64,000 nucleotides of DNA from Escherichia phage Esco_phi_B-01: the sequence record OP292222.1; one strand, written 5' to 3'. The stretch's first letter is position 1; the number at the start of each line of letters is the position of its first letter. The position numbers and the translations under genes are program-made. This document shows, in pieces, positions 642 to 43,737 of this stretch. The notes under the pieces were generated by a model that worked only from the letters and a program-made list of their open reading frames with translations, was not told the origin of the DNA and made no database searches.

Positions 642-983
642 ATGTTCGAACAATTTAGTTATGACCTTATAAAAGCAGAGTTGAAATACTCTAATGCCAT
701 GAAACAGTCTATTGAAGACTATGATAATGAATTTAAACACCAATTCGCCGAGAAGGTTTACAAAACCGATTGTGAAGAAGGAGACTACAAGAGACTGGCC
801 TTGGCCGCGAAGACCCAAGCCTTAATAAATCTAGACCGTAAGCAGGTTAAGTTGGCAGGCGACTTCAGAGATGAACTCTGCGCCATCAGGAACGAATACC
901 TTATTCGTATTAAACACCAACGTAAAGAGAATACCCAATCCGCTTGGTTTAGTGGGCAAGCCGGTGAAAAAAGTTTTTATTAG
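642..983 (+). CDS. hypothetical protein (113 aa)
   Basis: ORF with SD aaggtga 6 nt upstream of ATG; packed co-directionally. Confidence 0.5.
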   Translation: MFEQFSYDLIKAELKYSNAMKQSIEDYDNEFKHQFAEKVYKTDCEEGDYKRLALAAKTQALINLDRKQVKLAGDFRDELCAIRNEYLIRIKHQRKENTQSAWFSGQAGEKSFY

Positions 984-985
984 TT

Positions 986-1014
986 GTTTACATCTCCAGT
1001 AGAAATGATACTAT
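986..1014 (+). promoter_or_regulatory. early promoter, PeSL-like cassette (-35 GTTTAC, 17-bp spacer, -10 TACTAT) embedded in inverted repeat ctccagtag/ctactggag
   Basis: sequence motif; member of repeated family with core ATGATACTATAGAC(C/A)TATCAACTA. Confidence 0.6.
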
Positions 1015-1040
1015 AGACATATCAACTACTGGAGGTTATC

Positions 1041-1565
1041 ATGAACGCTAAAGATATTTTTTCACTGATTAATTTTAACAATGGTAATTTCAAATCTGAA
1101 AAACAAAGCAAGTTCTTTAACGACGTTGCTTGTGGTAATGAGATTACCGTATCTGGAGGAGAGATTTACAAAAGCCGTTGGAACTGGATTGCTATCATCG
1201 ATTCAGTTGGTATTGTAGAGCTCTATAAAAACACCAACAAAAAACGTACTCTTCACTGGAGTCGTGAAACCAACCAAGCTTATCAAGCTGAGCGTAATAA
1301 ACGTTTAATGCCTACCGAATCTGACCTGGCAAACGTTAAATCAGATATCGCTTATTTTGATAATCTGATTGCCGAACAACAAGCGGTTATTGATAAGTTT
1401 GACGAAATCAAAGCTTGTAAAGAGATTCCTGAATTCATGCGGGAATCAGTAAACGAACAATACGCCCTCACTTCAGGTCGTATCGAGCAGTACAAATCAC
1501 AACGAGCTGAACGCCAAGCTCTGCTTCAGAAATTTGAAGAGCGTTTAAAGACGGTTCTCGCATAA
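1041..1565 (+). CDS. hypothetical protein (174 aa) with C-terminal coiled-coil-like tail
   Basis: ORF directly downstream of PeSL promoter and SD ggagg. Confidence 0.6.
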   Translation: MNAKDIFSLINFNNGNFKSEKQSKFFNDVACGNEITVSGGEIYKSRWNWIAIIDSVGIVELYKNTNKKRTLHWSRETNQAYQAERNKRLMPTESDLANVKSDIAYFDNLIAEQQAVIDKFDEIKACKEIPEFMRESVNEQYALTSGRIEQYKSQRAERQALLQKFEERLKTVLA

Positions 1566-1628
1566 ACGCTTTATACCAAGGATGGTATAATGGTTCTAGG
1601 TTCTTAATTACTTACTGAGGAAATTATT

Positions 1629-2474
1629 ATGTCACAAGCAATTAATCAAATTCGTTCTGAAGTTAAAAAAGTTGTTAAATTTGGTCGTATTCCGAGTTCT
1701 AAAGAAGTGGTTGAAAAGGTCCTATATATGATGTGGGACAAGTTCAATGTTTGTACTGTTAAAGATGACTTCACTAAAATCTTTGACAAGACTAAAGGTT
1801 CGTTTACGTTAGAAGACCGAGTCATGAAAACTCTTCGTAAAACGGGTATGTTGTCTCGTGCTAATGCCAAAATTATTCTTAAAAATTATAACAAAGGCTA
1901 CGACCTTTATGGTCGTTTAATCCCGGCGATGACATTTGATGAAGTTGTTAAAGACCTTAATACTAATCAACGTCGTCTACTGGCCCTTGGTGCTCGCCTT
2001 GCAAAAGGTCAAGATAAACAAATGACCTTTAAGACTAACGGTTCAGGTGATTGGATTATCTTTAATATTGTTAATCATCCAAGAAATGAAAACGAGTATA
2101 CTATTTCCCATTACAGTGGGTGTCAATACGACAACTGGAAGTTCCATCTGCGCTTGGCCCTGTCTGAATTAGAACAACACGGTGTTCTTAGTTTTGGTGA
2201 TGCTGAAACTGGAGTAGGCCAACGTATTAAACTTTATAAAATTAAAGACCTGGCTGAAGAGCATTCAGAACAAGCTCCTAAAATGGAACCTGTACCAGTG
2301 CGCAGCAATGAGAAACATCAAGCCCAAATCGAGTATTTTAGCAATTTGCTTACTTGCTTGAATGTTACAATCCAACAACAAGATGATGAGATTTTCCGAC
2401 TCTCCGGTCTGAATGCCAAAGCTAAGGCTGAACGACAAAAATATATCGATATCTTAAATCTTCTTAAGGATTAA
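1629..2474 (+). CDS. hypothetical protein (281 aa); C-terminal segment resembles that of the 1041..1565 product
   Basis: ORF with canonical T4-type RBS ctGAGGAAAttattATG. Confidence 0.6.
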   Translation: MSQAINQIRSEVKKVVKFGRIPSSKEVVEKVLYMMWDKFNVCTVKDDFTKIFDKTKGSFTLEDRVMKTLRKTGMLSRANAKIILKNYNKGYDLYGRLIPAMTFDEVVKDLNTNQRRLLALGARLAKGQDKQMTFKTNGSGDWIIFNIVNHPRNENEYTISHYSGCQYDNWKFHLRLALSELEQHGVLSFGDAETGVGQRIKLYKIKDLAEEHSEQAPKMEPVPVRSNEKHQAQIEYFSNLLTCLNVTIQQQDDEIFRLSGLNAKAKAERQKYIDILNLLKD

Positions 2475-2476
2475 TT

Positions 2477-2677
2477 ATGGAAATCGCAGGTTTTATTCTT
2501 CTGTACCTTGCATTAGGATTCATTACTGTTCTGATTGGCCGCAAACATATGGAAATTAGCTCAGGTAGCGAAGCAGTATTCGCTACCTTTATTTGGCCGG
2601 TGCTTGCTTTATTTGGAATAGTTTCTATTGTGACTTGGCCTTTCGCTAAATTCTATGAAAAATTATTTGGACTTTAA
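2477..2677 (+). CDS. small hydrophobic membrane protein (66 aa)
   Basis: ORF; two predicted hydrophobic helices. Confidence 0.5.
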   Translation: MEIAGFILLYLALGFITVLIGRKHMEISSGSEAVFATFIWPVLALFGIVSIVTWPFAKFYEKLFGL

Positions 2678-2678
2678 T

Positions 2679-3548
2679 ATGAACATTAAAACACGTAAAG
2701 AATACTCTATATACGACCATGACACGACTCGTCGTATCGCTATCGATCGGCTGGCCGACTTTGGTCATATTTGTAATGGTAATTATACTTATGGTGTAGG
2801 CCGTAAAGGGACTTATATTAGTTCTTTGAATGATTATTGCCGTAGCCCAGCTCATTTATTTGGTGCAACACTACGAGCTAATATTAAAGACCTCTTGGCT
2901 ACTGCAGGACGTATTTCTACGGTTCCTGTTAATATAAAGAATATTAATTTTACGGCTCGTAACCTAGTCATTAATATTCTGCCTGATGGTATTCAAGTTC
3001 GTTTCCGTCCTACTTCAAAAGGTAATAAGGCTCTTCGTGAAGCATTCGAAACCTTATTCAGAGAAGCAATGACTCGTATTAAGGCCGTAGAATCATATAA
3101 AGTTACAACCGATGAATATGCTGATTGTTCTGGACGGGCTGATGCAGTGTATTTTAATGTTAAACTAACTCGTGAATATCTTTTGTCTTATGCCCCTTAT
3201 CAACCCCAACAAAAGGACCCACAAATGGAACGTCGTATCTCTGCAGTATCATGTGACAGCGTAGGCCAGTATGCAGCCTATGACAAATTCAAAACCACAG
3301 CTGTGCCTAGTCCATTCAATTCAGAACCGTATCATTGGAAAATTAGACCTGATAATTCTTTGGTTGTTACTAACCCTACGATGAAACCTATCGAGAAGTA
3401 TCATGAGGACCACCTCCAGGAATCAATCCACCGTTTAAACGGTCAGATCGAAGATGAGAAAAAGAGTATTCAAGACGTATTGATTCGCATCAAGAATATG
3501 GAAATCCAGCGTGACAAGCTTCGCGCGGCAGTATTAGCTCTAAAATAA
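2679..3548 (+). CDS. hypothetical protein (approx 289 aa)
   Basis: ORF; start chosen at first ATG after upstream stop (track start 2655 overlaps previous gene). Confidence 0.5.
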   Translation: MNIKTRKEYSIYDHDTTRRIAIDRLADFGHICNGNYTYGVGRKGTYISSLNDYCRSPAHLFGATLRANIKDLLATAGRISTVPVNIKNINFTARNLVINILPDGIQVRFRPTSKGNKALREAFETLFREAMTRIKAVESYKVTTDEYADCSGRADAVYFNVKLTREYLLSYAPYQPQQKDPQMERRISAVSCDSVGQYAAYDKFKTTAVPSPFNSEPYHWKIRPDNSLVVTNPTMKPIEKYHEDHLQESIHRLNGQIEDEKKSIQDVLIRIKNMEIQRDKLRAAVLALK

Positions 3549-3549
3549 T

Positions 3550-3579
3550 GTTTACATCCAAGGACGGATGGAGTATAAT
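3550..3579 (+). promoter_or_regulatory. early promoter (GTTTAC ... GAGTATAAT)
   Basis: -35/-10 motifs with 18-bp spacer. Confidence 0.55.
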
Positions 3580-3607
3580 CCTTTTATCAACTACTGAGGA
3601 GAATATC

Positions 3608-4618
3608 ATGACTCGTACTGAATACATCAATGCCTTTACTAAGTATATCACTGACAATACCCCTCCATTAACCCCATATATGGTAATAGTTTCTAATATC
3701 AATAAATGGGTAGACCAAATTGATGATGCATTATCGCGCTGTTTCAAAGCTGAAATAGAAAAGATTGCAGGGCGTTTGTTTATTCCTGATATCGTAGATA
3801 CATTTAAAGGTTCTCGACTGCTTTCTCGACTGGTCAATAAGGACATCCTTTCTGAGTTCGGTAAAGAGAAATATCCGGGTTCTAACCATGTTGTTAGCTA
3901 CAAATGGTTTGGTGATACCATAAAAGATTATGTCAAAATTAAAGGTATGGACCCTAGTAGTTTATTTCCGCAACGTTGGGTTAGCGAATTCAAGGCTAAC
4001 TCTGCATTAATTCTCAAAGCGGCCTCTAAAACTATAGTTTCCGGTGATTGTCGTACTATTCACCCGATGGCTAATTGCATGATTAAAACAAATAGTTATA
4101 AAGGAAAAGCTATTATTTCTGTTATTTGGTCGCCTAATAGGAAACCTAAAGATGATGCGGAAGTTGTAAAGTATCAAGATATTGCTTACGATACCTTGAA
4201 TACTATCGAACAAGCCTTAGCTTTGATGGATACAGTAGAGAAATATGAGACCCAAGAAGTTAAACACCACTTAGGCTGGAAAGGATATGAAGTTTTAGTA
4301 ACAGTTCGCGAAATCAAATGGCCTGTTCCAAAAACTGACGCTGAAATTTACCAAGAAAAATGTGAGGAAATTGTGAATACTGATAAAGAGCCTGCTACAT
4401 TAGAAGACTTGATTAACGACTTGAACAGCCCTATCATGGCCCATACACCAATTACTAAATCCAAGTTACCGGAAATCGTTGCCTTAGAAAAAGCGTATAA
4501 AGATGCCCTTGCTATCAACAAAAAACTGACCGGACAATATACCGCTGCCAAGAAACTTTGGGAAGAGTCTACCAATCGTTTAGACCGTCTTGAACAGGCT
4601 CTGGAGCTGTTGAAATGA
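3608..4618 (+). CDS. hypothetical protein (336 aa)
   Basis: ORF; start at ATG preceded by ctGAGGAGaatatc; track start 3548 lies inside promoter. Confidence 0.6.
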   Translation: MTRTEYINAFTKYITDNTPPLTPYMVIVSNINKWVDQIDDALSRCFKAEIEKIAGRLFIPDIVDTFKGSRLLSRLVNKDILSEFGKEKYPGSNHVVSYKWFGDTIKDYVKIKGMDPSSLFPQRWVSEFKANSALILKAASKTIVSGDCRTIHPMANCMIKTNSYKGKAIISVIWSPNRKPKDDAEVVKYQDIAYDTLNTIEQALALMDTVEKYETQEVKHHLGWKGYEVLVTVREIKWPVPKTDAEIYQEKCEEIVNTDKEPATLEDLINDLNSPIMAHTPITKSKLPEIVALEKAYKDALAINKKLTGQYTAAKKLWEESTNRLDRLEQALELLK

Positions 4619-18351: not shown

Positions 18352-18714
18352 ATGATTGAAATTACTCTGAAACAACCTGAAGACTTCTTGAAAGTGAAAG
18401 AGACCCTAACTCGTATGGGTATCGCTAATAATAAAGAAAAGAAACTATATCAATCCTGTCACATTTTGCAAAAGCAAGGACGGTATTATATTGTCCACTT
18501 TAAAGAGATGTTGCGTATGGATGGCCGCCAGGTAGATATCGATGGTGAAGACTACCAACGCCGTGATTCCATAGCCCAGCTTCTTAAGGATTGGGGACTT
18601 ATTGATATTGTAGACGATTCTGAATTGTTCGAAATTACTAATAATTTCCGTGTCATTTCATTTAAACAGAAAAATGACTGGGAACTGCTGTCTAAGTATA
18701 CGATTGGTAATTAA
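18352..18714 (+). CDS. regA: translational repressor RegA
   Basis: similarity recalled to T4 RegA; position directly upstream of gene 43. Confidence 0.88.
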   Translation: MIEITLKQPEDFLKVKETLTRMGIANNKEKKLYQSCHILQKQGRYYIVHFKEMLRMDGRQVDIDGEDYQRRDSIAQLLKDWGLIDIVDDSELFEITNNFRVISFKQKNDWELLSKYTIGN

Positions 18715-18722
18715 GTTTAAGC

Positions 18723-18743
18723 AAAGGGACTTTGGTCCCTTTT
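18723..18743 (+). terminator. hairpin + T-run (aagggac-tttg-gtccctt-ttt) after regA; may double as leader structure of gene 43
   Basis: stem-loop with T5. Confidence 0.6.
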
Positions 18744-18802
18744 TGGAGTATAATTATTCATCAACAAACAAAAGACAATCACTCGTCTATAAAGGAAATG
18801 AA

Positions 18803-21514
18803 ATGCAAGAATTCTATTTGACAGTCGAACAAATCGGTGATAATATTCTCGAACGTTACATCGATAAAAATGGTAACGAACGTAGTCGTGAAGTTCCTTA
18901 CAAGCCTACAATGTTTATGCATGCCAACCCAGAGCAAGCCGTAAAATATATTGACATCTACGGTAAGGGCTGTGTTAAGAAAGAATTCGATTCAATGCGC
19001 GATGCTTCTCAGTGGATGAAGCGAATGGACGATATGGGTCTCGAAGCCCTTGGTATGGACGACTACAAATTAGCCTATTTGTCTGATACCTATCGTAAAG
19101 AAATCAAGTATGATTCTTCCAAGATTCGTATTGCTAACTTCGACATCGAGGTAACATCTCCTGATGGATTCCCTGAACCTGCCCAGGCTAAACATCCTAT
19201 CGATGCCATTACTCACTACGACTCGATTGACGATAAATTCTATGTATTCGACCTTTTAGTTTCACCTTATGGTACGGTCGAAGAGTGGTCGATTAAAATC
19301 GCTGAGAAACTCCAAGACGAAGGTGGTGACGAAGTTCCACAAGAAATCATTGACAAAATCGTTTATCTTCCGTTTAATTCTGAAGAAGAAATGATGCTTG
19401 AGTATCTGAATTTCTGGCAACAGAAAACTCCTGTGATTTTGACTGGATGGAACGTTGAATCATTTGACGTGCCATACGTTTATAACCGTCTGAAAAATCT
19501 GTTTGGTGAGAACACTGCTAAGCGATTAAGCCCGCATCGTAAGACTCGTGTTAAAGTTATCGAGAATATGTACGGTGTTCGTGAAATTATTACACTGTTC
19601 GGTATTTCTGTTCTGGATTATATCGACCTTTATAAAAAATTCAGCTTTACTAACCAGCCTTCTTATTCTCTGGATTATGTTTCTGAATATGAATTGAAAG
19701 TAGGTAAGTTGAAATATGATGGTCCTATCTCCAAGTTACGTGAGACAAACCACCAACGATATATTTCCTATAACATTATCGACGTATATCGTGTTGTGCA
19801 GATTGATATGAAACGCCAGTTCATTCTTCTTAGTCTGGACATGGGTTATTATGCTAAGATGCAGATTCAGTCAGTGTTCAGTCCAATTAAGACTTGGGAC
19901 GCTATTATCTTTAATAGCCTTAAAGAACAGGGTAAAGTTATTCCTCAGGCCAAATCGCATGCGGTTCAACCTTATCCAGGTGCTTTCGTTAAGGAACCTA
20001 TTCCTAACGCGTACAAATATGTAATGAGTTTCGACCTTACATCTCTGTACCCAAGTATCATTCGACAAGTGAATATAAGCCCAGAGACCATCGCAGGCAC
20101 ATTCGCCAACGCACCGATACATGAATATATTGCCGGAACTGCTCCGCGTCCTAGCGACACCTACAGTTGCTCTCCTAACGGCATGATGTACTATAAAGAC
20201 CGTGATGGTGTGATTCCTACAGAAATCACGAAGGTGTTCTTACAACGTAAAGAACATAAAGGTTATATGCTCGCAGCTCAACGTAATGGTGAGTTAATTA
20301 AAGAAGCATTAGAAAATCCTAATCCATCTGTTGATAGTCCACTGGATATCGATTATCGTTTCGACTTCTCTGACGAAATCAAAGCCCAGATTAAAAAATT
20401 GTCAGCATCTTCTTTAAAAGAAATGTTGTTCAAAGCCGAACGTACTGAAGTCGCAGGTATGACTGCTCAGATTAACCGTAAGTTGCTTATCAACTCCCTT
20501 TATGGTGCACTTGGTAACGTATGGTTCCGTTACTATGACCTCAGGAACGCAACTGCAATCACATTGTTTGGTCAAATGGCCCTCCAATGGATTGAACGTA
20601 AGGTTAACGAATATCTGAATAGCGTATGTAAGACCGAAAACCAGAAGTTCGTGCTCTATGGTGATACCGACTCCATTTATGTTAAGGCCGATGCAATCAT
20701 CAATAAAGTAGGCGAAGATAAATTCCGTGATACTAACCACTGGGTTGACTTCTTAGATAAATTTGCACGTGAACGTATGGAACCAGCTATTGATGCAGGC
20801 TTCCGTGAGATGTGTGAATACATGAACAATAAACAGCACTTGATGTTCATGGACCGAGAAGCTATCGCAGGTCCTCCACTTGGTTCTAAAGGTCTTGGTG
20901 GATTCTGGACAGGCAAGAAACGTTATGCACTGAACGTTTGGGACATGGAAGGTACTCGTTATGCCGAACCACACTTGAAAATCATGGGTCTCGAAACTCA
21001 GAAATCAAGTACACCTAAAGCGGTTCAGAAAGCACTGAAAGAATGTATCCGTCGTATGCTTCAAGAAGGCGAGGCCTCTTTGCAAGAGTATTTCAAACAG
21101 TTTAATAAGGAATTTAACGAATTAGACTATGTAAGCATTGCTGCAGTATCCAGTGCTAACAACATCGAGAAATATAATGAAGGTGGTTTCCCTGGTTCTA
21201 AATGCCCGTATCACATCAAAGGTTGCTTAGCTTACATGCGTGCTTCTGCTGGTGATTTGACTATGCCTCGTATCGTTGATGGTGAAAAGGTATATGTACT
21301 GCCACTTAAAGAAGGCAACCCGTTCGGTGAAGCTTGTATGGCATGGCCGTCAGGTATTGAACTTCCGATTCAGATTCGTGACCAAGTCCTCCGTTGGATG
21401 GACTACAACGTACTGTTCCAAAAGACCTTTATCAAACCCCTGACCGGTTTTACTGAGTCTGCTAAAATCGACTACGAGAAAAAAGCAACATTATTTGACA
21501 TGTTTGACTTTTAA
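18803..21514 (+). CDS. 43: DNA polymerase gp43 (family B, with 3'-5' exonuclease)
   Basis: Exo I FDIEV, motif A DLTSLYPSII, motif C YGDTDS; N-terminus MQEFYLTVEQIGDNI matches T4/RB69-type gp43; start taken at ATG after SD aagga (track ORF starts upstream). Confidence 0.97.
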   Translation: MQEFYLTVEQIGDNILERYIDKNGNERSREVPYKPTMFMHANPEQAVKYIDIYGKGCVKKEFDSMRDASQWMKRMDDMGLEALGMDDYKLAYLSDTYRKEIKYDSSKIRIANFDIEVTSPDGFPEPAQAKHPIDAITHYDSIDDKFYVFDLLVSPYGTVEEWSIKIAEKLQDEGGDEVPQEIIDKIVYLPFNSEEEMMLEYLNFWQQKTPVILTGWNVESFDVPYVYNRLKNLFGENTAKRLSPHRKTRVKVIENMYGVREIITLFGISVLDYIDLYKKFSFTNQPSYSLDYVSEYELKVGKLKYDGPISKLRETNHQRYISYNIIDVYRVVQIDMKRQFILLSLDMGYYAKMQIQSVFSPIKTWDAIIFNSLKEQGKVIPQAKSHAVQPYPGAFVKEPIPNAYKYVMSFDLTSLYPSIIRQVNISPETIAGTFANAPIHEYIAGTAPRPSDTYSCSPNGMMYYKDRDGVIPTEITKVFLQRKEHKGYMLAAQRNGELIKEALENPNPSVDSPLDIDYRFDFSDEIKAQIKKLSASSLKEMLFKAERTEVAGMTAQINRKLLINSLYGALGNVWFRYYDLRNATAITLFGQMALQWIERKVNEYLNSVCKTENQKFVLYGDTDSIYVKADAIINKVGEDKFRDTNHWVDFLDKFARERMEPAIDAGFREMCEYMNNKQHLMFMDREAIAGPPLGSKGLGGFWTGKKRYALNVWDMEGTRYAEPHLKIMGLETQKSSTPKAVQKALKECIRRMLQEGEASLQEYFKQFNKEFNELDYVSIAAVSSANNIEKYNEGGFPGSKCPYHIKGCLAYMRASAGDLTMPRIVDGEKVYVLPLKEGNPFGEACMAWPSGIELPIQIRDQVLRWMDYNVLFQKTFIKPLTGFTESAKIDYEKKATLFDMFDF

Positions 21515-21516
21515 GT

Positions 21517-21546
21517 GTTTACATACCACATGGAACGTGGTATTAT
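21517..21546 (+). promoter_or_regulatory. early promoter, PeSL-like (GTTTAC ... TATTAT)
   Basis: motif. Confidence 0.55.
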
Positions 21547-21576
21547 CCTTCCTATCAACTACATGAGGAAATTATA

Positions 21577-21813
21577 ATGGAAGCTTTAATCGTTAGTGCT
21601 GGTGTTTTAGGATTCGGTTCTCTGGCTATTATGTTCATTGGTTACTTTTTACCATGGATTCTAGCTCTTTTGCGAGGCACCCGTAGCAATGTCGGAATCT
21701 TCTTCCTTAATCTCTTGTTAGGATGGACGATGATTGGTTGGGTAGTGGCTTTAATCTGGGCCATCGTCGCTGAACGTAAATCAAACGCACAAATCATTAT
21801 CGTTAAACAATGA
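21577..21813 (+). CDS. imm: superinfection immunity membrane protein Imm
   Basis: two hydrophobic helices; position downstream of 43 as in T4. Confidence 0.8.
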   Translation: MEALIVSAGVLGFGSLAIMFIGYFLPWILALLRGTRSNVGIFFLNLLLGWTMIGWVVALIWAIVAERKSNAQIIIVKQ

Positions 21814-21947
21814 AGATAATTATTTTATTTCTTATAATGACTGCCTTTACCGTTTATTGGGCAGTGGCAATTCCTCCAATGATTCCAACATTAATCATAG
21901 GATGGATTATTCTTATAGCACAAATTAAGTATAACTGTTTTAATTGA
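21810..21947 (+). CDS. small hydrophobic peptide (45 aa)
   Basis: ATGA overlap with imm stop; entirely hydrophobic. Confidence 0.35.
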   Translation: MKIIILFLIMTAFTVYWAVAIPPMIPTLIIGWIILIAQIKYNCFN

Positions 21948-21954
21948 GGATATT

Positions 21955-22455
21955 ATGAAAAAGTTAATTATCGCAATGAGTATGCTCCTATCAGGTTGCG
22001 CGGTCCAATACGGTGATGCAGTTTCGGCTGATGAAGTTGGTAAAGCTCGTATTGCAGCTGAACAGAAACAATTCGACGGCGAAATGAAATTCCGTGCCGG
22101 TTCTGGACTTGTGTATACCCGAGCTAATAATCAATGTGGTAATAACTGTGCAAAATATGCTCAAAGGGAAATCGAATTCCAACGTGAACAAGAGTCTAAG
22201 CGTGAAGAGGTACTAGCCAAACACCAGGCAGAAATGAAGCGCCAAGATGATTTGTACAAAAAGCAGAAACTGTATTCTATGTGTGTAAACCATATCAATC
22301 TACAGATTTCTGTCCATGAGGCTCGTTATTACGAAATGCTCGAAACCGAGAGCTTCGATAAAGCTCGTGATTATAAGAAACAAATCAACAAGCTTAAGAC
22401 CAAAGTGCCTGCTGCAGTAGAACAGTGCATGGAATACGGTAAAGATAAGATTTAA
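21955..22455 (+). CDS. predicted lipoprotein (signal peptide with lipobox LLSGC), coiled-coil rich
   Basis: N-terminal MKKLIIAMSMLLSGC. Confidence 0.6.
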   Translation: MKKLIIAMSMLLSGCAVQYGDAVSADEVGKARIAAEQKQFDGEMKFRAGSGLVYTRANNQCGNNCAKYAQREIEFQREQESKREEVLAKHQAEMKRQDDLYKKQKLYSMCVNHINLQISVHEARYYEMLETESFDKARDYKKQINKLKTKVPAAVEQCMEYGKDKI

Positions 22456-22515
22456 GCAATAGAAATTTATTAAAAATAGTGTATAATGTACCTACATTCA
22501 CTTGAGGAACAGATA

Positions 22516-24189
22516 ATGAAAAAGGTTGTTATTTTAGGCGCAGGTCTTGGCTCACGGTTGTATCCAATTACTAACGAAATCCCGAAGGTATTGGTTAACT
22601 ATAAACAACATACGGTATTAAAGCATTTGTATGATTTGTATAGTAACCAATCAGATGAAATTATTCTGGTTATTCACAGCAAATTTAACGACCTCGTTAA
22701 AGGCTATATTAAATCCATTAACATGATTACTGGTGATAAGCCTAAATTCACTATTCGTAACGTTGATGTTGCTAATGGTTCAGCTCATGCAATCGATTGC
22801 ATTGCCGAAGATATCATTGGCCATAATGTCCTGTTTAACTGGTGTGACATCATTCCTATCGGTCATAAAGTTGAATGGGGTAACGACTACTGTTATACCT
22901 ATGGAACTGACTGTCGTTTTACATTTGAAGAACCGTACTTACGTGAAATTGGTACTGGTGGCGGTGTAGTTGGTTTGTATCAGGTAGCCAATTGGACAGG
23001 TTTCGACCGTTCTAATTATGGTGAAGACCTTGCTGATAACCTGGATTCAATGGTCTATTTGACCGAACGTAAACTGGATTTTGTAGTTGATGTCGGTGAC
23101 AAATTGAAACTGGCTAAGGCCCATGAAGAATCTGAAATTAACCGTGAATTTAATAAATTAGAATTCACCGAGAATCTGGCTATTAAAGTACCAACTAACG
23201 AATTAGGTAAAGAAATTCAATCTAAAGAAATCAATTGGTATAATTCTATTGATTCTGAATTCGTTCCTAGCATTGTAGACTTTTCTCCAGGCGAATTCAT
23301 TAAAATGGAACGTATCTTTGGTCGAACCATGGCAGATGCCTACCGGTTTATGTCCAAAGAAACTAAAGTCCTCATGGTTTATAAGGTCATTAGTGCATTA
23401 CGTTCATTTGGTGGAACTATTGATAACCCGTCCGATGAGCAATGGTATTCCGATGTTAAGAAAGAAGTATTGGACAAGGTCCTTATTCGTAATGCTTCTA
23501 TTGCTGGATTGATTGAAGGCTTTGCTCCACAGGGCATTACCCATGTTAACGATTTCAAAGTAGGCGACCCTGAAAAACTTCTTCGCCATGCACTAGAAAT
23601 TCTGTCTGAACATAAAGAACCGTACCAACTTATTCATGGCGACCCGCACTACAGTAATATTATGCTGTCGGACGAAGGTGATATTAAAATCATCGACCCA
23701 CGTGGTTATTTCGGTAATAGTTCTAAAGGCCCTGCGATTTATGATGAAGCTAAGGTGCTTTATTCTATCGATGGCTATGACAAATTTAACTCAGACCCTC
23801 TATGGGGCGGATTAACTCGTAACGGAACTCGTGTATTCGTTGATATCGAAAAGATTATGCCTTTAGACGATATCCCTATGTGCACATTTAAGCACAAGCT
23901 CTGGATTGCTGTTATTTGGATGGCTCTGGCAGGTTACTTTAAGAATAACCCTCTGAAAGCTCTAGGTGCTTATTATAACGGTTTGTACCAACTGAGTGTG
24001 CTGCTGAAGCGGCATCCTCGTAAGCGTAAGCTTATTACGGGTGAATTTGTCGATGAAGTTCGTGACCCTATTACGGCTCAAATTATTACTCGTTGTCCTG
24101 ATAAGTGGGTTTTGCTTGACCAGGAAACTGGTGTAAAATATAAACCTACAGGTTCTACTGAACTCCACAAACAATGGAAGAAAATTTAA
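22516..24189 (+). CDS. bifunctional nucleotidyltransferase / protein-kinase-like phosphotransferase
   Basis: N-terminus ILGAGLGSRLYPIT...PKVLV (sugar-phosphate nucleotidyltransferase G-x-G-x-R signature); C-terminus HGDPHYSNIML ... IKIIDPRGYFG (Brenner HxDxxxxN + downstream D, APH/choline-kinase-like); start at ATG after SD gaggaa. Confidence 0.75.
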   Translation: MKKVVILGAGLGSRLYPITNEIPKVLVNYKQHTVLKHLYDLYSNQSDEIILVIHSKFNDLVKGYIKSINMITGDKPKFTIRNVDVANGSAHAIDCIAEDIIGHNVLFNWCDIIPIGHKVEWGNDYCYTYGTDCRFTFEEPYLREIGTGGGVVGLYQVANWTGFDRSNYGEDLADNLDSMVYLTERKLDFVVDVGDKLKLAKAHEESEINREFNKLEFTENLAIKVPTNELGKEIQSKEINWYNSIDSEFVPSIVDFSPGEFIKMERIFGRTMADAYRFMSKETKVLMVYKVISALRSFGGTIDNPSDEQWYSDVKKEVLDKVLIRNASIAGLIEGFAPQGITHVNDFKVGDPEKLLRHALEILSEHKEPYQLIHGDPHYSNIMLSDEGDIKIIDPRGYFGNSSKGPAIYDEAKVLYSIDGYDKFNSDPLWGGLTRNGTRVFVDIEKIMPLDDIPMCTFKHKLWIAVIWMALAGYFKNNPLKALGAYYNGLYQLSVLLKRHPRKRKLITGEFVDEVRDPITAQIITRCPDKWVLLDQETGVKYKPTGSTELHKQWKKI

Positions 24190-24572
24190 TGTCGTATCGA
24201 GTAGAAAATAAGCCACATTTATGTTTTGATATCGATAACACAATCACGATTTGGAACCATGACCGTGATTATGAGAACTTTAAACCGGACACCGAAATGG
24301 TGTCCATGATTAATAAGCTTTATGATGAAGGGTACGAGATTACATTGTTCACCGCGCGTGGCATGACTTCATGTGGCCCAGGTCGAATCTTGGTTGAAGT
24401 AGTTCCTGCCTTGGTTAAGAACCTTGAAAAAATTGGATTGAAATATCACAATTTGCTTACACATAAGCCGAGTTATACTTTTATCATCGATGACCGAGCA
24501 ATCCGTCCTGACCACTTTAAAGAAATGGTTCGTGAAGGAACTCTTGATGGTTATAAGGCCTATCATCCATGA
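24189..24572 (+). CDS. small HAD-superfamily phosphatase
   Basis: motif I FDIDNTIT (DxDxT), motif II LFTARG, motif IV IIDDR; alternative start 24174. Confidence 0.7.
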   Translation: MSYRVENKPHLCFDIDNTITIWNHDRDYENFKPDTEMVSMINKLYDEGYEITLFTARGMTSCGPGRILVEVVPALVKNLEKIGLKYHNLLTHKPSYTFIIDDRAIRPDHFKEMVREGTLDGYKAYHP

Positions 24573-25105
24573 ATCCAAAAATCATTGTTATAGACGGCCC
24601 GGATAATTCCGGGAAGTCCACTTTAATTAAAAATCTGTTATCCAATAAGAAATACCGCCTTATTGATTTTCCTAAAAAGATTAATGGCAAGTGTATTTCA
24701 TTAGGAACTGATAACGATAAGGCTTTAGTTGAAACTCTGTATAAGTTTTTAGACCCTAATTTCGTTTATATCCTTGACCGTGGTTATCCAAGTAATATTG
24801 TTTACTCAGGATTCCTTCGTGGTGAAATGGACCCTTATGTAGAACTGGAAGATTGGAAAGGGTTTAAATCTGAATTTAACGTTATCGAGGTTATTTTAAC
24901 TCGCAACCCATTAGACGAAGACTTCGAAGACGACCTTATTAAATTAACCGAAGATGAGTTCAACCTAACTATCCGGCAATACGAAACATGTTTTGAAAAC
25001 GTGTTTAAAATCTTAAATCATGACGGCCATAATAATTTGCTTAATGTTGATATGGTAGAATTAAAACGTCTGAACGAATATATTGAAAATAAGGTGAATA
25101 AATGA
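24569..25105 (+). CDS. thymidylate-kinase-like P-loop NMP kinase
   Basis: P-loop IVIDGPDNSGKST and DRGY..S..Y motif resembling Tmk DR(Y/H) region. Confidence 0.65.
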   Translation: MNPKIIVIDGPDNSGKSTLIKNLLSNKKYRLIDFPKKINGKCISLGTDNDKALVETLYKFLDPNFVYILDRGYPSNIVYSGFLRGEMDPYVELEDWKGFKSEFNVIEVILTRNPLDEDFEDDLIKLTEDEFNLTIRQYETCFENVFKILNHDGHNNLLNVDMVELKRLNEYIENKVNK

Positions 25106-30857: not shown

Positions 30858-31151
30858 ATGAAAAAGTTATTAATCGCAGCAATCCTTACAGTAGCATCAT
30901 GTGGTACAGCTCCAGTTACGGCTGGATTGGATAAAGACCTTTGTGAATGGTCTATGACCGCAGACCAAGAATCAGTTGAACATCAGATTTACGCTGATAT
31001 CATGAATATCACTAAACGTGACCGTCCTGATATGGTTAAAGAAGTATCTGACCAATTGGCTTCTAGCGGTGTTATGCAGTATAACTATGTTCTGTACTGT
31101 GATGCTAATTTCGATAACAAAAATATTGTTAAAGAGGTGATAGGTGAATAA
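30858..31151 (+). CDS. predicted lipoprotein (lipobox VASC)
   Basis: N-terminal MKKLLIAAILTVASCG. Confidence 0.55.
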   Translation: MKKLLIAAILTVASCGTAPVTAGLDKDLCEWSMTADQESVEHQIYADIMNITKRDRPDMVKEVSDQLASSGVMQYNYVLYCDANFDNKNIVKEVIGE

Positions 31152-43476: not shown

Positions 43477-43737
43477 ATGAAATATGTTAATCGTTCTATC
43501 GCGGCTCTTGTACTAGCAGTTTCGTTGGTTGGTTGTACTGATGCCGATAATGCTACCCGTGTATTAGATGCAAATGGCTACGAACAAATCCAAATCACGG
43601 GATACAACCTATTTGGCTGTTCTGAAGATGATTTCCAACGTACAGGCTTTATTGCTGTAGGGCCGACAGGTAAAAGGGTTGAAGGAACAGTTTGTTCCGG
43701 GTTATTCTTTAAAAAGTCGACCATTCGATTTGATTAA
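43477..43737 (+). CDS. predicted lipoprotein (lipobox LVGC)
   Basis: N-terminal MKYVNRSIAALVLAVSLVGC. Confidence 0.55.
   Translation: MKYVNRSIAALVLAVSLVGCTDADNATRVLDANGYEQIQITGYNLFGCSEDDFQRTGFIAVGPTGKRVEGTVCSGLFFKKSTIRFD

Follow-up and report, generated by a model that had tools for sequence, protein, structure and literature searches.

The gene of a probable lipoprotein beside imm in a JS98-like Dhakavirus is the counterpart of T4 imm.1 and a candidate superinfection-exclusion gene

Textbooks explain superinfection exclusion by phage T4 through two genes, imm and sp. Does the cassette around imm hold a further contributor? We addressed this question in a 64,000-nucleotide stretch of Escherichia phage Esco_phi_B-01 (sequence record OP292222.1; hereafter the window), in which an open reading frame (ORF) at 21955..22455 on the + strand encodes a 166-residue protein. 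A preliminary description had read this protein as an envelope lipoprotein and a possible exclusion or injection-blocking factor. We conclude that this JS98-like Dhakavirus carries the ORF as a genuine early gene and that it is the Dhakavirus counterpart, by position and by remote sequence homology, of T4 imm.1, both points being established or nearly so. The product is very probably a periplasmic lipoprotein of the Imm.1 family. Its function is a more tentative matter: the exclusion idea is reasonable on the sequence comparisons made here, as a candidate role only.

The window derives from a JS98-like Dhakavirus: positions 21500-22500 share 98.0% identity with phage JS98 and 94.8-98.3% with the other isolates listed, and 51 records match altogether. 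The DNA polymerase gene 43 (+ strand) ends at 21514 and is followed by three tightly packed + strand ORFs, in which the lipoprotein gene does follow imm and a small hydrophobic partner, as had been described. The features of this cassette are (E, expect value):

21518..21546, + strand: candidate early-type (sigma-70-like) promoter 5' of imm, TTTACA-17-TATTAT with a TG extension, 10 of 12 consensus matches.
21577..21813, + strand: imm, superinfection-immunity inner-membrane protein of 78 residues (Pfam PF14373 Imm_superinfect, E 5.2e-18; phrog_1039, E 4.7e-32).
21810..21947, + strand: hydrophobic ORF of 45 residues (phrog_3610, E 2.7e-21; T4 Y02C family).
21946..21950, + strand: GAGGA ribosome-binding site of the lipoprotein gene, overlapping the TGA stop of the 45-residue ORF.
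21955..22455, + strand: lipoprotein gene of 166 residues with an ATG start; orthologue of JS98 orf43, T4 imm.1 family, phrog_1754.
22460..22487, + strand: next candidate early-type promoter, TAGAAA-16-TATAAT, a consensus match that marks the start of a downstream sugar-nucleotide cluster and the end of the cassette.

The start of the 45-residue ORF overlaps the imm stop (ATGA). The JS98 orthologue of the window imm is itself annotated imm, and JS98 orf43 (YP_001595172) carries the annotation 'hypothetical protein'. T4 has a site equivalent to the first promoter candidate, TTTACA-17-TACTAT, upstream of imm.1. The promoter calls are consensus matches and are to be read as such, not as evidence of function. 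A scan of the coding strand between the two candidates found no terminator, late motif or MotA box. Because promoter candidates occur only before imm and after the lipoprotein gene, the genes are tightly packed and no terminator lies between them, the three genes look like a single early transcription unit, presumably read from the candidate at 21518-21546.

The relationship to T4 runs through imm.1, a 125-residue lipoprotein gene between gene 43 and imm whose product begins MKIAILVIALGLAGCVAQGPVVNQSDVGK. The window protein matches phrog_1754 ('unknown function') over residues 1-163 with E 4e-52, T4 Imm.1 matches the same family with E 6e-43, and hhalign placed the family profile on T4 Imm.1 at 95.9% probability (E 5.6e-9, 91 columns). 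The Pfam model DUF5481 (PF17578), which is defined by T4 Imm.1 (239 bits), gave no match to the window protein at E<=1 (gathering threshold 27 bits) and spans the T4-type subfamily only. Scans of the window protein against Pfam, NCBIfam and PADLOC returned nothing significant, profile, sequence and fold searches of the PDB gave no match, and Foldseek against BFVD found family members only.

An exhaustive hidden Markov model (HMM) search of 1.84 billion representative proteins gave 27 matches, of 86-192 residues apart from one (P0040); word-indexed searches gave 11 and 20 clusters. Among 50,697 phage records, a JS98-type query matched 126 and a T4-type query 657, for a family of about 780. Judged by these searches, the Imm.1 family is small, with matches only in phage records and phage-like contigs. 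The hit records that were opened all belong to the Straboviridae and nearly all are assigned to the Tevenvirinae, in the genera Tequatrovirus, Dhakavirus, Gaprivervirus, Kanagawavirus, Winklervirus, Mosugukvirus, Kagamiyamavirus and Gelderlandvirus. Matches of about 32% identity to T4 Imm.1 came from JS09 and ST0, which look like RB69-type Mosigvirus phages. The outlying match P0040, a protein of 1550 residues with a signal peptide and Ig/cadherin-like repeats, was rejected as a homologue: the GTGLTYTPxxNYCG hairpin motif common to nine of its repeats and to family-profile residues 33-69 (summed E 4e-6) is probably a convergent or motif-level resemblance. Several records name family members misleadingly, as 'capsid and scaffold protein', 'recombination endonuclease subunit-containing protein' and 'Phage immunity' or 'immunity protein', and the T4 RefSeq entry labels imm.1 'iduronate sulfatase'.

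Is the product a lipoprotein? Its N terminus, MKKLIIAMSMLLSGC, agrees with a PROSITE PS51257-type rule, in which a positively charged n-region precedes an uncharged h-region and a lipobox [LVI][ASTVI][GAS]C with the Cys at 15-35: there is a Lys within the first 7 residues, the h-region is uncharged, and L-S-G-C ends at Cys15. The pattern by itself is weak evidence, because 6 of the 1443 candidate starts in the window match this rule and shuffled sequence yields a mean of 2.25 matches. In an alignment of 39 homologues, K2, L12, G14 and C15 are near-invariant, and the ratio of non-synonymous to synonymous substitution rates (dN/dS) over seven Dhakavirus copies is 0.09, against 0.06 for the C-terminal half of the polymerase and 0.05 for imm. 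With the lipobox conserved in homologues and the gene under purifying selection, we therefore regard the gene as real and constrained and the lipoprotein call as solid; the 166-residue protein with an LLSGC lipobox in the preliminary description stands.

In E. coli, Asp at position +2 is an inner-membrane retention signal. None of the inspected homologues has Asp at +2, and the window protein has Ala there, which predicts Lol sorting to the outer membrane. Across the 39 homologues C110 and C158 are invariant, and C61 and C65 of a QCGxNC motif are either both present or both absent, a pattern of the kind expected of disulfides in an exported or periplasmic protein. The family-wide lipobox, the +2 residue and the conserved or co-varying Cys pairs all agree with the placing of a Sec- and signal peptidase II-type envelope lipoprotein beside imm, and the gene product is most probably an exported lipoprotein sorted to the outer membrane.

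The motif might instead lie within an ordinary signal peptide, leaving a soluble periplasmic protein. The pattern does turn up about twice per shuffled window, and the Spackle protein encoded elsewhere in the window has a lipobox-like VASC, yet T4 Spackle is treated as a soluble periplasmic protein of 75 residues when mature (PMC7677548). One distant family member (P0035) lacks the lipobox Cys, so the lipid anchor may be dispensable for the Imm.1 family. Set against these points, the 39-sequence alignment shows a short h-region that ends in a near-invariant L-x-G-C, no conserved A-x-A site lies at a usable distance after the lipobox, and both depositors and UniProt name homologues as lipoproteins. 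We consider a non-lipidated product very improbable.

What would the mature protein look like? AlphaFold2 with the 39-sequence alignment gave a mean predicted local distance difference test score (pLDDT) of 81 and a predicted template modelling score (pTM) of 0.49; an earlier run with 20 sequences gave a pLDDT of 68 and the same topology. Residues 1-26, comprising the signal peptide and a tether, are predicted to be disordered. The parts of the protein are:

21955..21999, + strand: signal peptide with lipobox L-S-G-C, residues 1-15 (pattern scan and near-invariant residues in 39 homologues).
22000..22137, + strand: tether, residues 16-26, and conserved N-terminal module (AlphaFold model and conservation).
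22138..22347, + strand: long continuous helix, residues 62-131 (about 70 residues), including C110 (pLDDT 83-98 from residue 80 on).
22242..22452, + strand: exchangeable C-terminal helical-bundle module, about residues 97-166, with the invariant C110 and C158 (comparison with contig L024, below).

The N-terminal module is predicted to contain a helix at residues 27-39, a beta-hairpin at 42-56 with a G-x-G-x-x-Y motif, and the QCGxNC loop bearing C61 and C65 (CGNNC here). Beyond the long helix, further helices are predicted at 134-149 and 151-162 (pLDDT 95-98), and these presumably fold back on its distal half. The body had been described as coiled-coil-rich. The long helices are indeed predicted; however, heptad periodicity is weak, with at most 40% hydrophobic residues at a/d positions, and residues 62-99 form a highly charged stalk (17 of 38 residues), so that we rejected a canonical coiled coil. 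The length of the helix suggests a rod of about 100 Å.

Does the lipoprotein depend on Imm? In the loci examined, which span ten genera, its gene is always the first or nearly the first after gene 43, and the rest of the cassette varies. The order 43, imm, small ORF, lipoprotein is found in JS98, VR7, contigs L024 and L029, and the window. T4 has 43, imm.1 (the lipoprotein), imm, an unannotated 49-residue homologue of the small ORF, and 42; S16 and Ursula have 43, lipoprotein, imm, 42. The small ORF is missing from contigs L025 and L026 (43, imm, lipoprotein), where the start codon of the lipoprotein gene overlaps the imm stop. There is no imm in the locus of PEi20, CHI14, PM2 and EcS1 (43, lipoprotein, arabinose-5-phosphate isomerase, small ORF), of IME523 (43, lipoprotein, a hypothetical gene) or of contig L028 (43, lipoprotein, 42). 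In the complete genome of Serratia phage CHI14 (171,175 bp), neither tblastn with five Imm sequences nor an Imm HMM run against the ORFs of all six frames found an Imm homologue (best hmmsearch E 0.35; no tblastn match below 0.8); CHI14 does encode Spackle. Because CHI14 keeps the lipoprotein without any Imm homologue, we conclude that Imm is not required and that the lipoprotein gene is tied to the slot downstream of the polymerase more tightly than to imm.

These gene orders bear directly on the idea that the lipoprotein is an obligate structural partner of Imm, alone or with the 45-residue ORF, in one trans-envelope immunity complex. The two genes neighbour each other, and are probably transcribed together, in T4, S16, Ursula, JS98, VR7, L025 and L029, and stop and start codons overlap within the cassette. 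We nevertheless judge an obligate complex improbable. CHI14 has the lipoprotein and the small ORF with no Imm homologue, the loci of PEi20, PM2, EcS1, IME523 and L028 have no imm, and the S16 locus has no small ORF. In L024 the C-terminal module has been swapped while imm changed by one residue only. Imm is also far more widespread, occurring in 1633 phage records against about 780 for the lipoprotein family, and cloned imm alone is said to give immunity.

The family of the 45-residue ORF (phrog_3610) has a conserved C-terminal KYxC[FI]N, with homologues in VR7, CHI14 and L029, and the L029 copy is tagged PF26865 Phage_T4_Y02C. The 49-residue T4 homologue (L007, 4228-4377, - strand) overlaps the imm stop and is unannotated in RefSeq NC_000866. 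The small ORF persists without imm in CHI14, PEi20, PM2 and EcS1.

How has the lipoprotein gene changed between lineages? Identity to the window is as follows:

VR7: polymerase 78%, Imm 73%, lipoprotein 49%.
T4: polymerase 61%, Imm 49%, lipoprotein 22%.
PEi20: polymerase 81%, imm absent, lipoprotein 33%.

The metagenomic contig L029 matches the window at 87-97% identity in the flanking genes, 74% in Imm, 73% in the small ORF and only 33% in the lipoprotein, and its lipoprotein copy lacks the N-terminal helix. Contig L024 has flanks, imm and small ORF at 95-100% nucleotide identity to the window; across its lipoprotein gene (L024 4001-4498) identity is 38-53% over window positions 22242-22421 and 68% in the 22422-22480 bin. 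The part replaced in this sharp recombination cassette covers the last ~70 codons, residues ~97-166, with both C110 and C158 kept. A donor of this C-terminal cassette was sought in 50,697 phage records and none was found; the best match, at 30% identity, was the Dhakavirus domain itself. These alignments show that the lipoprotein combines a relatively conserved N-terminal half with an exchangeable C-terminal module, and that the imm, small ORF and lipoprotein cassette is a local hypervariable island with the lipoprotein as its most divergent gene.

A further copy, in L020 (phage VR5, 3501-3998), has an N-terminal ~70 residues that are P0004-like (AASLLLSGCAVQYGEVVTADEVGK...) and a C-terminal part near-identical to the window protein, and looks like a mosaic in the opposite direction from L024.

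Within genera, the picture is one of conservation. Dhakavirus copies are 91-99% identical across many isolates, and positive selection within Dhakavirus was rejected, with dN/dS at 0.04-0.18 in every segment. In Tequatrovirus, 502 records carry Imm.1 at 95% identity or more; T2, T4 and T6 are among them, with proteins that are 97.6-100% identical. By contrast, copies from E. coli phages of other genera are 20-50% identical.

What, then, might the protein do? A part in envelope conflict is suggested by where the protein would lie and when it would be made, by the genes that share its cassette, and by the way it evolves: purifying selection holds inside a genus, divergence is extreme and modules are exchanged from one lineage to another, and conservation is genus-specific. 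Its standing as the most divergent gene of a hypervariable island adds circumstantial support for a role in conflict between phages or between phage and envelope. Early phage lipoproteins that exclude have precedents in T5 Llp, Cor and Ltp. We tentatively favour an accessory envelope-protection or superinfection-exclusion factor acting parallel to Imm and Spackle, and give this rather less than an even chance. Such a protein would be made within minutes of infection, exported by Sec, lipidated at Cys15 and placed by Lol in the inner leaflet of the outer membrane. A tether of ~10 residues would carry the small conserved module, which would anchor or position the protein near the outer membrane, and a helical stalk of ~100 Å would hold the distal, disulfide-stapled bundle out toward the peptidoglycan layer. 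It would act in the periplasm alongside Imm in the inner membrane and Spackle in the periplasm, as an obligate subunit of neither, with the rapidly diversifying, exchangeable distal bundle binding a genus-specific target. A phage-derived target is suggested because genera of E. coli phages share the envelope and not the sequence, and T2, T4 and T6 share the protein and not the receptor; the likeliest would be some part of the tail tip, hub or tube of related phages as they arrive, not the tail-fibre receptor.

In its most specific form, this proposal would make the Imm.1 family a third, hitherto unrecognized arm of T-even exclusion: a periplasmic rod anchored in the outer membrane, with its conserved base just beneath that membrane and a distal bundle that captures arriving members of its own genus by their tail tip, hub or tube. 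Penetration would then be aborted before the inner membrane, the site of Imm, and independently of the inhibition of gp5 lysozyme by Spackle, and cassette swaps of the distal bundle would set the specificity of exclusion between competing relatives. We regard this specific form as doubtful.

An early lipoprotein predicted to lie in the inner leaflet of the outer membrane also recalls the cell biology of T5 Llp, and it could mask a receptor in the manner of Llp and Cor, binding the periplasmic face of the phage's own outer-membrane receptor and inactivating it. This would block adsorption of other phages and spare progeny from loss on cell debris. There is a weak PHROG match to Cor (phrog_1119, E 0.014), which is confined to residues 1-18, the signal peptide. 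The receptors of T2 (FadL/OmpF), T4 (OmpC and lipopolysaccharide (LPS)) and T6 (Tsx) differ, yet their Imm.1 proteins are nearly the same; Dhakavirus copies are likewise nearly uniform across many isolates; and Llp, compact at ~60 residues, bears little resemblance to a protein of ~150 residues containing a 70-residue helix. Receptor masking is therefore disfavoured, and a conserved host target less so, because conservation follows the genus and not the receptor or the host; we take the receptor-blocking variant to be unlikely.

A periplasmic lipoprotein with no part in exclusion deserves more weight, although we hold it to be somewhat unlikely. It could stabilize the envelope during infection, alter lysis timing or lysis inhibition, inhibit a host periplasmic or outer-membrane enzyme, or counter a host defence located in the envelope. 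The evidence on localization and early expression serves such roles equally well, the gene persists without imm in CHI14 and in L028, and hypervariability is typical of anti-defence genes too. T4 imm.1 is non-essential on K-12, as would be expected of a host- or condition-specific accessory gene. In a T4 transposon sequencing (Tn-seq) preprint (bioRxiv 10.1101/2025.11.20.689424), transposons were tolerated at 31 of 31 TA sites in imm.1, which is classed 'Non-essential', and at 20 of 20 in imm, and in one conditional comparison imm.1 showed no effect, with a log2 fold change (log2FC) of 0.06. The hits named in its main text, for RexAB, RnlAB, CBASS, DarTG1, DarTG2 and minimal medium M9, exclude imm.1, which in so far speaks against an anti-defence role. 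The Tn-seq result fits an accessory gene, and growth of a pooled library would be blind to an exclusion phenotype that acts in trans. Against a conserved host target, E. coli phages of four genera share the host envelope with copies only 20-50% identical, a poor fit; and the lysis genes (t, rI, rIII and the spanins) sit elsewhere in T-even genomes such as that of CHI14.

Returning to envelope protection or exclusion, several points weigh against it. A literature search found no experiment on any family member, the matches to 'imm.1' being mostly journal abbreviations. Classical T4 genetics credits exclusion to imm and sp, and Lu and Henning reportedly found in 1989 that plasmid-borne imm alone excludes T4; because imm and sp account for classical exclusion, any contribution of imm.1 would be minor, conditional or aimed at a trait outside those assays. 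The AlphaFold model is of a monomer, with pTM 0.49 and only moderate confidence in the N-terminal third, and fast divergence could come in part from the low constraint on a simple helical rod.

If the protein does serve exclusion or envelope protection, a periplasmic layer anchored in the outer membrane would be added to the model of exclusion, residual exclusion in imm and sp mutants could be explained, and kin-specific competition between the T-even phages of therapeutic cocktails could be approached. If not, it is an ordinary accessory gene. In either case a predicted early outer-membrane lipoprotein is conserved in about 780 T-even-type records as the fastest-evolving gene of its cassette, with an exchangeable distal domain. 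As a member of the T4 imm.1 family the gene was already present in databases, though unannotated or called hypothetical. The present additions are modest: a connection to T4 imm.1 that crosses the limit of the Pfam model, the finding that the gene does not depend on imm, a protein of two modules with exchange as a cassette, and a conserved three-gene envelope cassette including a small ORF that is unannotated in the T4 RefSeq record. For annotation, 'imm.1-family lipoprotein' tells a reader more than 'hypothetical protein' does, and it avoids the inaccuracy of labels such as 'capsid and scaffold protein' or 'iduronate sulfatase'.

Two further lipoprotein genes had been proposed in the window, and they fared differently. 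The ORF at 43477-43737 (+ strand) has a canonical LVGC; it is a homologue of T4 and JS98 gp39.1 (phrog_902, E 8e-35) and adjoins the topoisomerase gene 39. The ORF at 30858-31151 (+ strand) is Spackle (Pfam T4_Spackle, E 3e-42), with V-A-S-C in its signal peptide and the Cys at position 15; this motif is lipobox-like and the T4 counterpart is described as soluble, which makes the lipoprotein label doubtful there. The corresponding motif in T4 Spackle is presumably LASC.

Upstream of the cassette, the mechanical ORF of gene 43 (18650-21514, + strand) opens with GTG at 18650, and comparison with T4 and JS98 places the true start at the ATG at 18803 (MQEFYLTVEQIG...), giving 903 residues. In L026, a Gaprivervirus-like metagenomic contig, gene 43 (744-3689) is called as two ORFs of 577 and 335 residues about 200 nt apart, perhaps because the gene is split or carries an insertion, perhaps as an artefact of assembly or of a frameshift; in its sister contig L025 gene 43 is intact, at 904 residues. 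Downstream of the cassette, from 22486 to 25105 and beyond (+ strand), lies a cluster also present in RB69 (orf052c-045c-like), with a 567-residue fusion of an NTP-transferase and an APH-type kinase, a HAD-like protein (annotated 'phosphoheptose isomerase') and a dTMP-kinase-like protein. Going by JS98 and L029, a thymidylate-synthase/dCMP-hydroxymethylase-like gene comes next, and relatives add a D-arabinose-5-phosphate isomerase. The cluster looks like a sugar-nucleotide pathway for DNA hypermodification, of which we take RB69-type arabinosyl-hydroxymethylcytosine (arabinosyl-hmC) to be an example.

How does the window protein compare with known systems? T4 Imm.1 shares with it phrog_1754, the lipobox and two conserved distal Cys residues, and the segment just after the lipobox Cys corresponds, VAQGPVVNQSDVGK in T4 Imm.1 and AVQYGDAVSADEVGK in the window protein. 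Both genes occupy the slot 3' of gene 43, in the imm cassette and behind an early-type promoter candidate. The two proteins are only ~22% identical and differ in length by 41 residues, the window protein being the longer, and most of the GxGxxY/QCGxNC module is missing from T4 Imm.1. Gene order is also inverted, with 43, imm.1, imm, small ORF in T4 and 43, imm, small ORF, lipoprotein in the window.

T4 Spackle (gp61.3) is similar in being early, exported, helical, disulfide-containing and periplasmic, and the signal peptides are alike; unlike the window protein, it is regarded as soluble and has a known target, the gp5 lysozyme. Homology to Spackle (PF25676) was rejected, as hhalign aligned only the 16-residue signal peptide.

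The o- and u-spanins and Braun's lipoprotein Lpp are outer-membrane lipoproteins with elongated periplasmic parts, and the predicted rod is about as long as Lpp. In contrast to spanin genes, the window gene has an early-type promoter candidate and sits outside any lysis cassette, and its product is not Pro-rich. We rejected a spanin identity: the gene has neither a late TATAAATA motif nor an i-spanin gene within or beside it, the C terminus lacks a transmembrane domain or any hydrophobic segment, and the neighbours are imm and nucleotide-sugar genes. Unlike Lpp, the window family has a C terminus that is not conserved, with no Lpp-like terminal Lys, and weak heptads.

T5 Llp and the Cor family (phi80, N15 and T1), which inactivate FhuA, are likewise small early phage lipoproteins of the outer-membrane inner leaflet in an exclusion context. 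Homology to Cor was rejected, given the signal-peptide match described above and the absence of a sequence or fold match in the PDB. The window protein is much larger than these, is predicted to form an elongated helical rod, and belongs to a family whose pattern of conservation is inconsistent with receptor specificity.

The parallel of a different sort is Ltp of Streptococcus phage TP-J34, a prophage-encoded protein of an unrelated family and a Gram-positive host, to which the PDB sequence and fold searches gave no similarity. The likeness is one of concept, a membrane-anchored, helix-rich lipoprotein that intercepts an incoming tail component: Ltp blocks DNA injection by binding the tape measure protein, rather than by masking a receptor.

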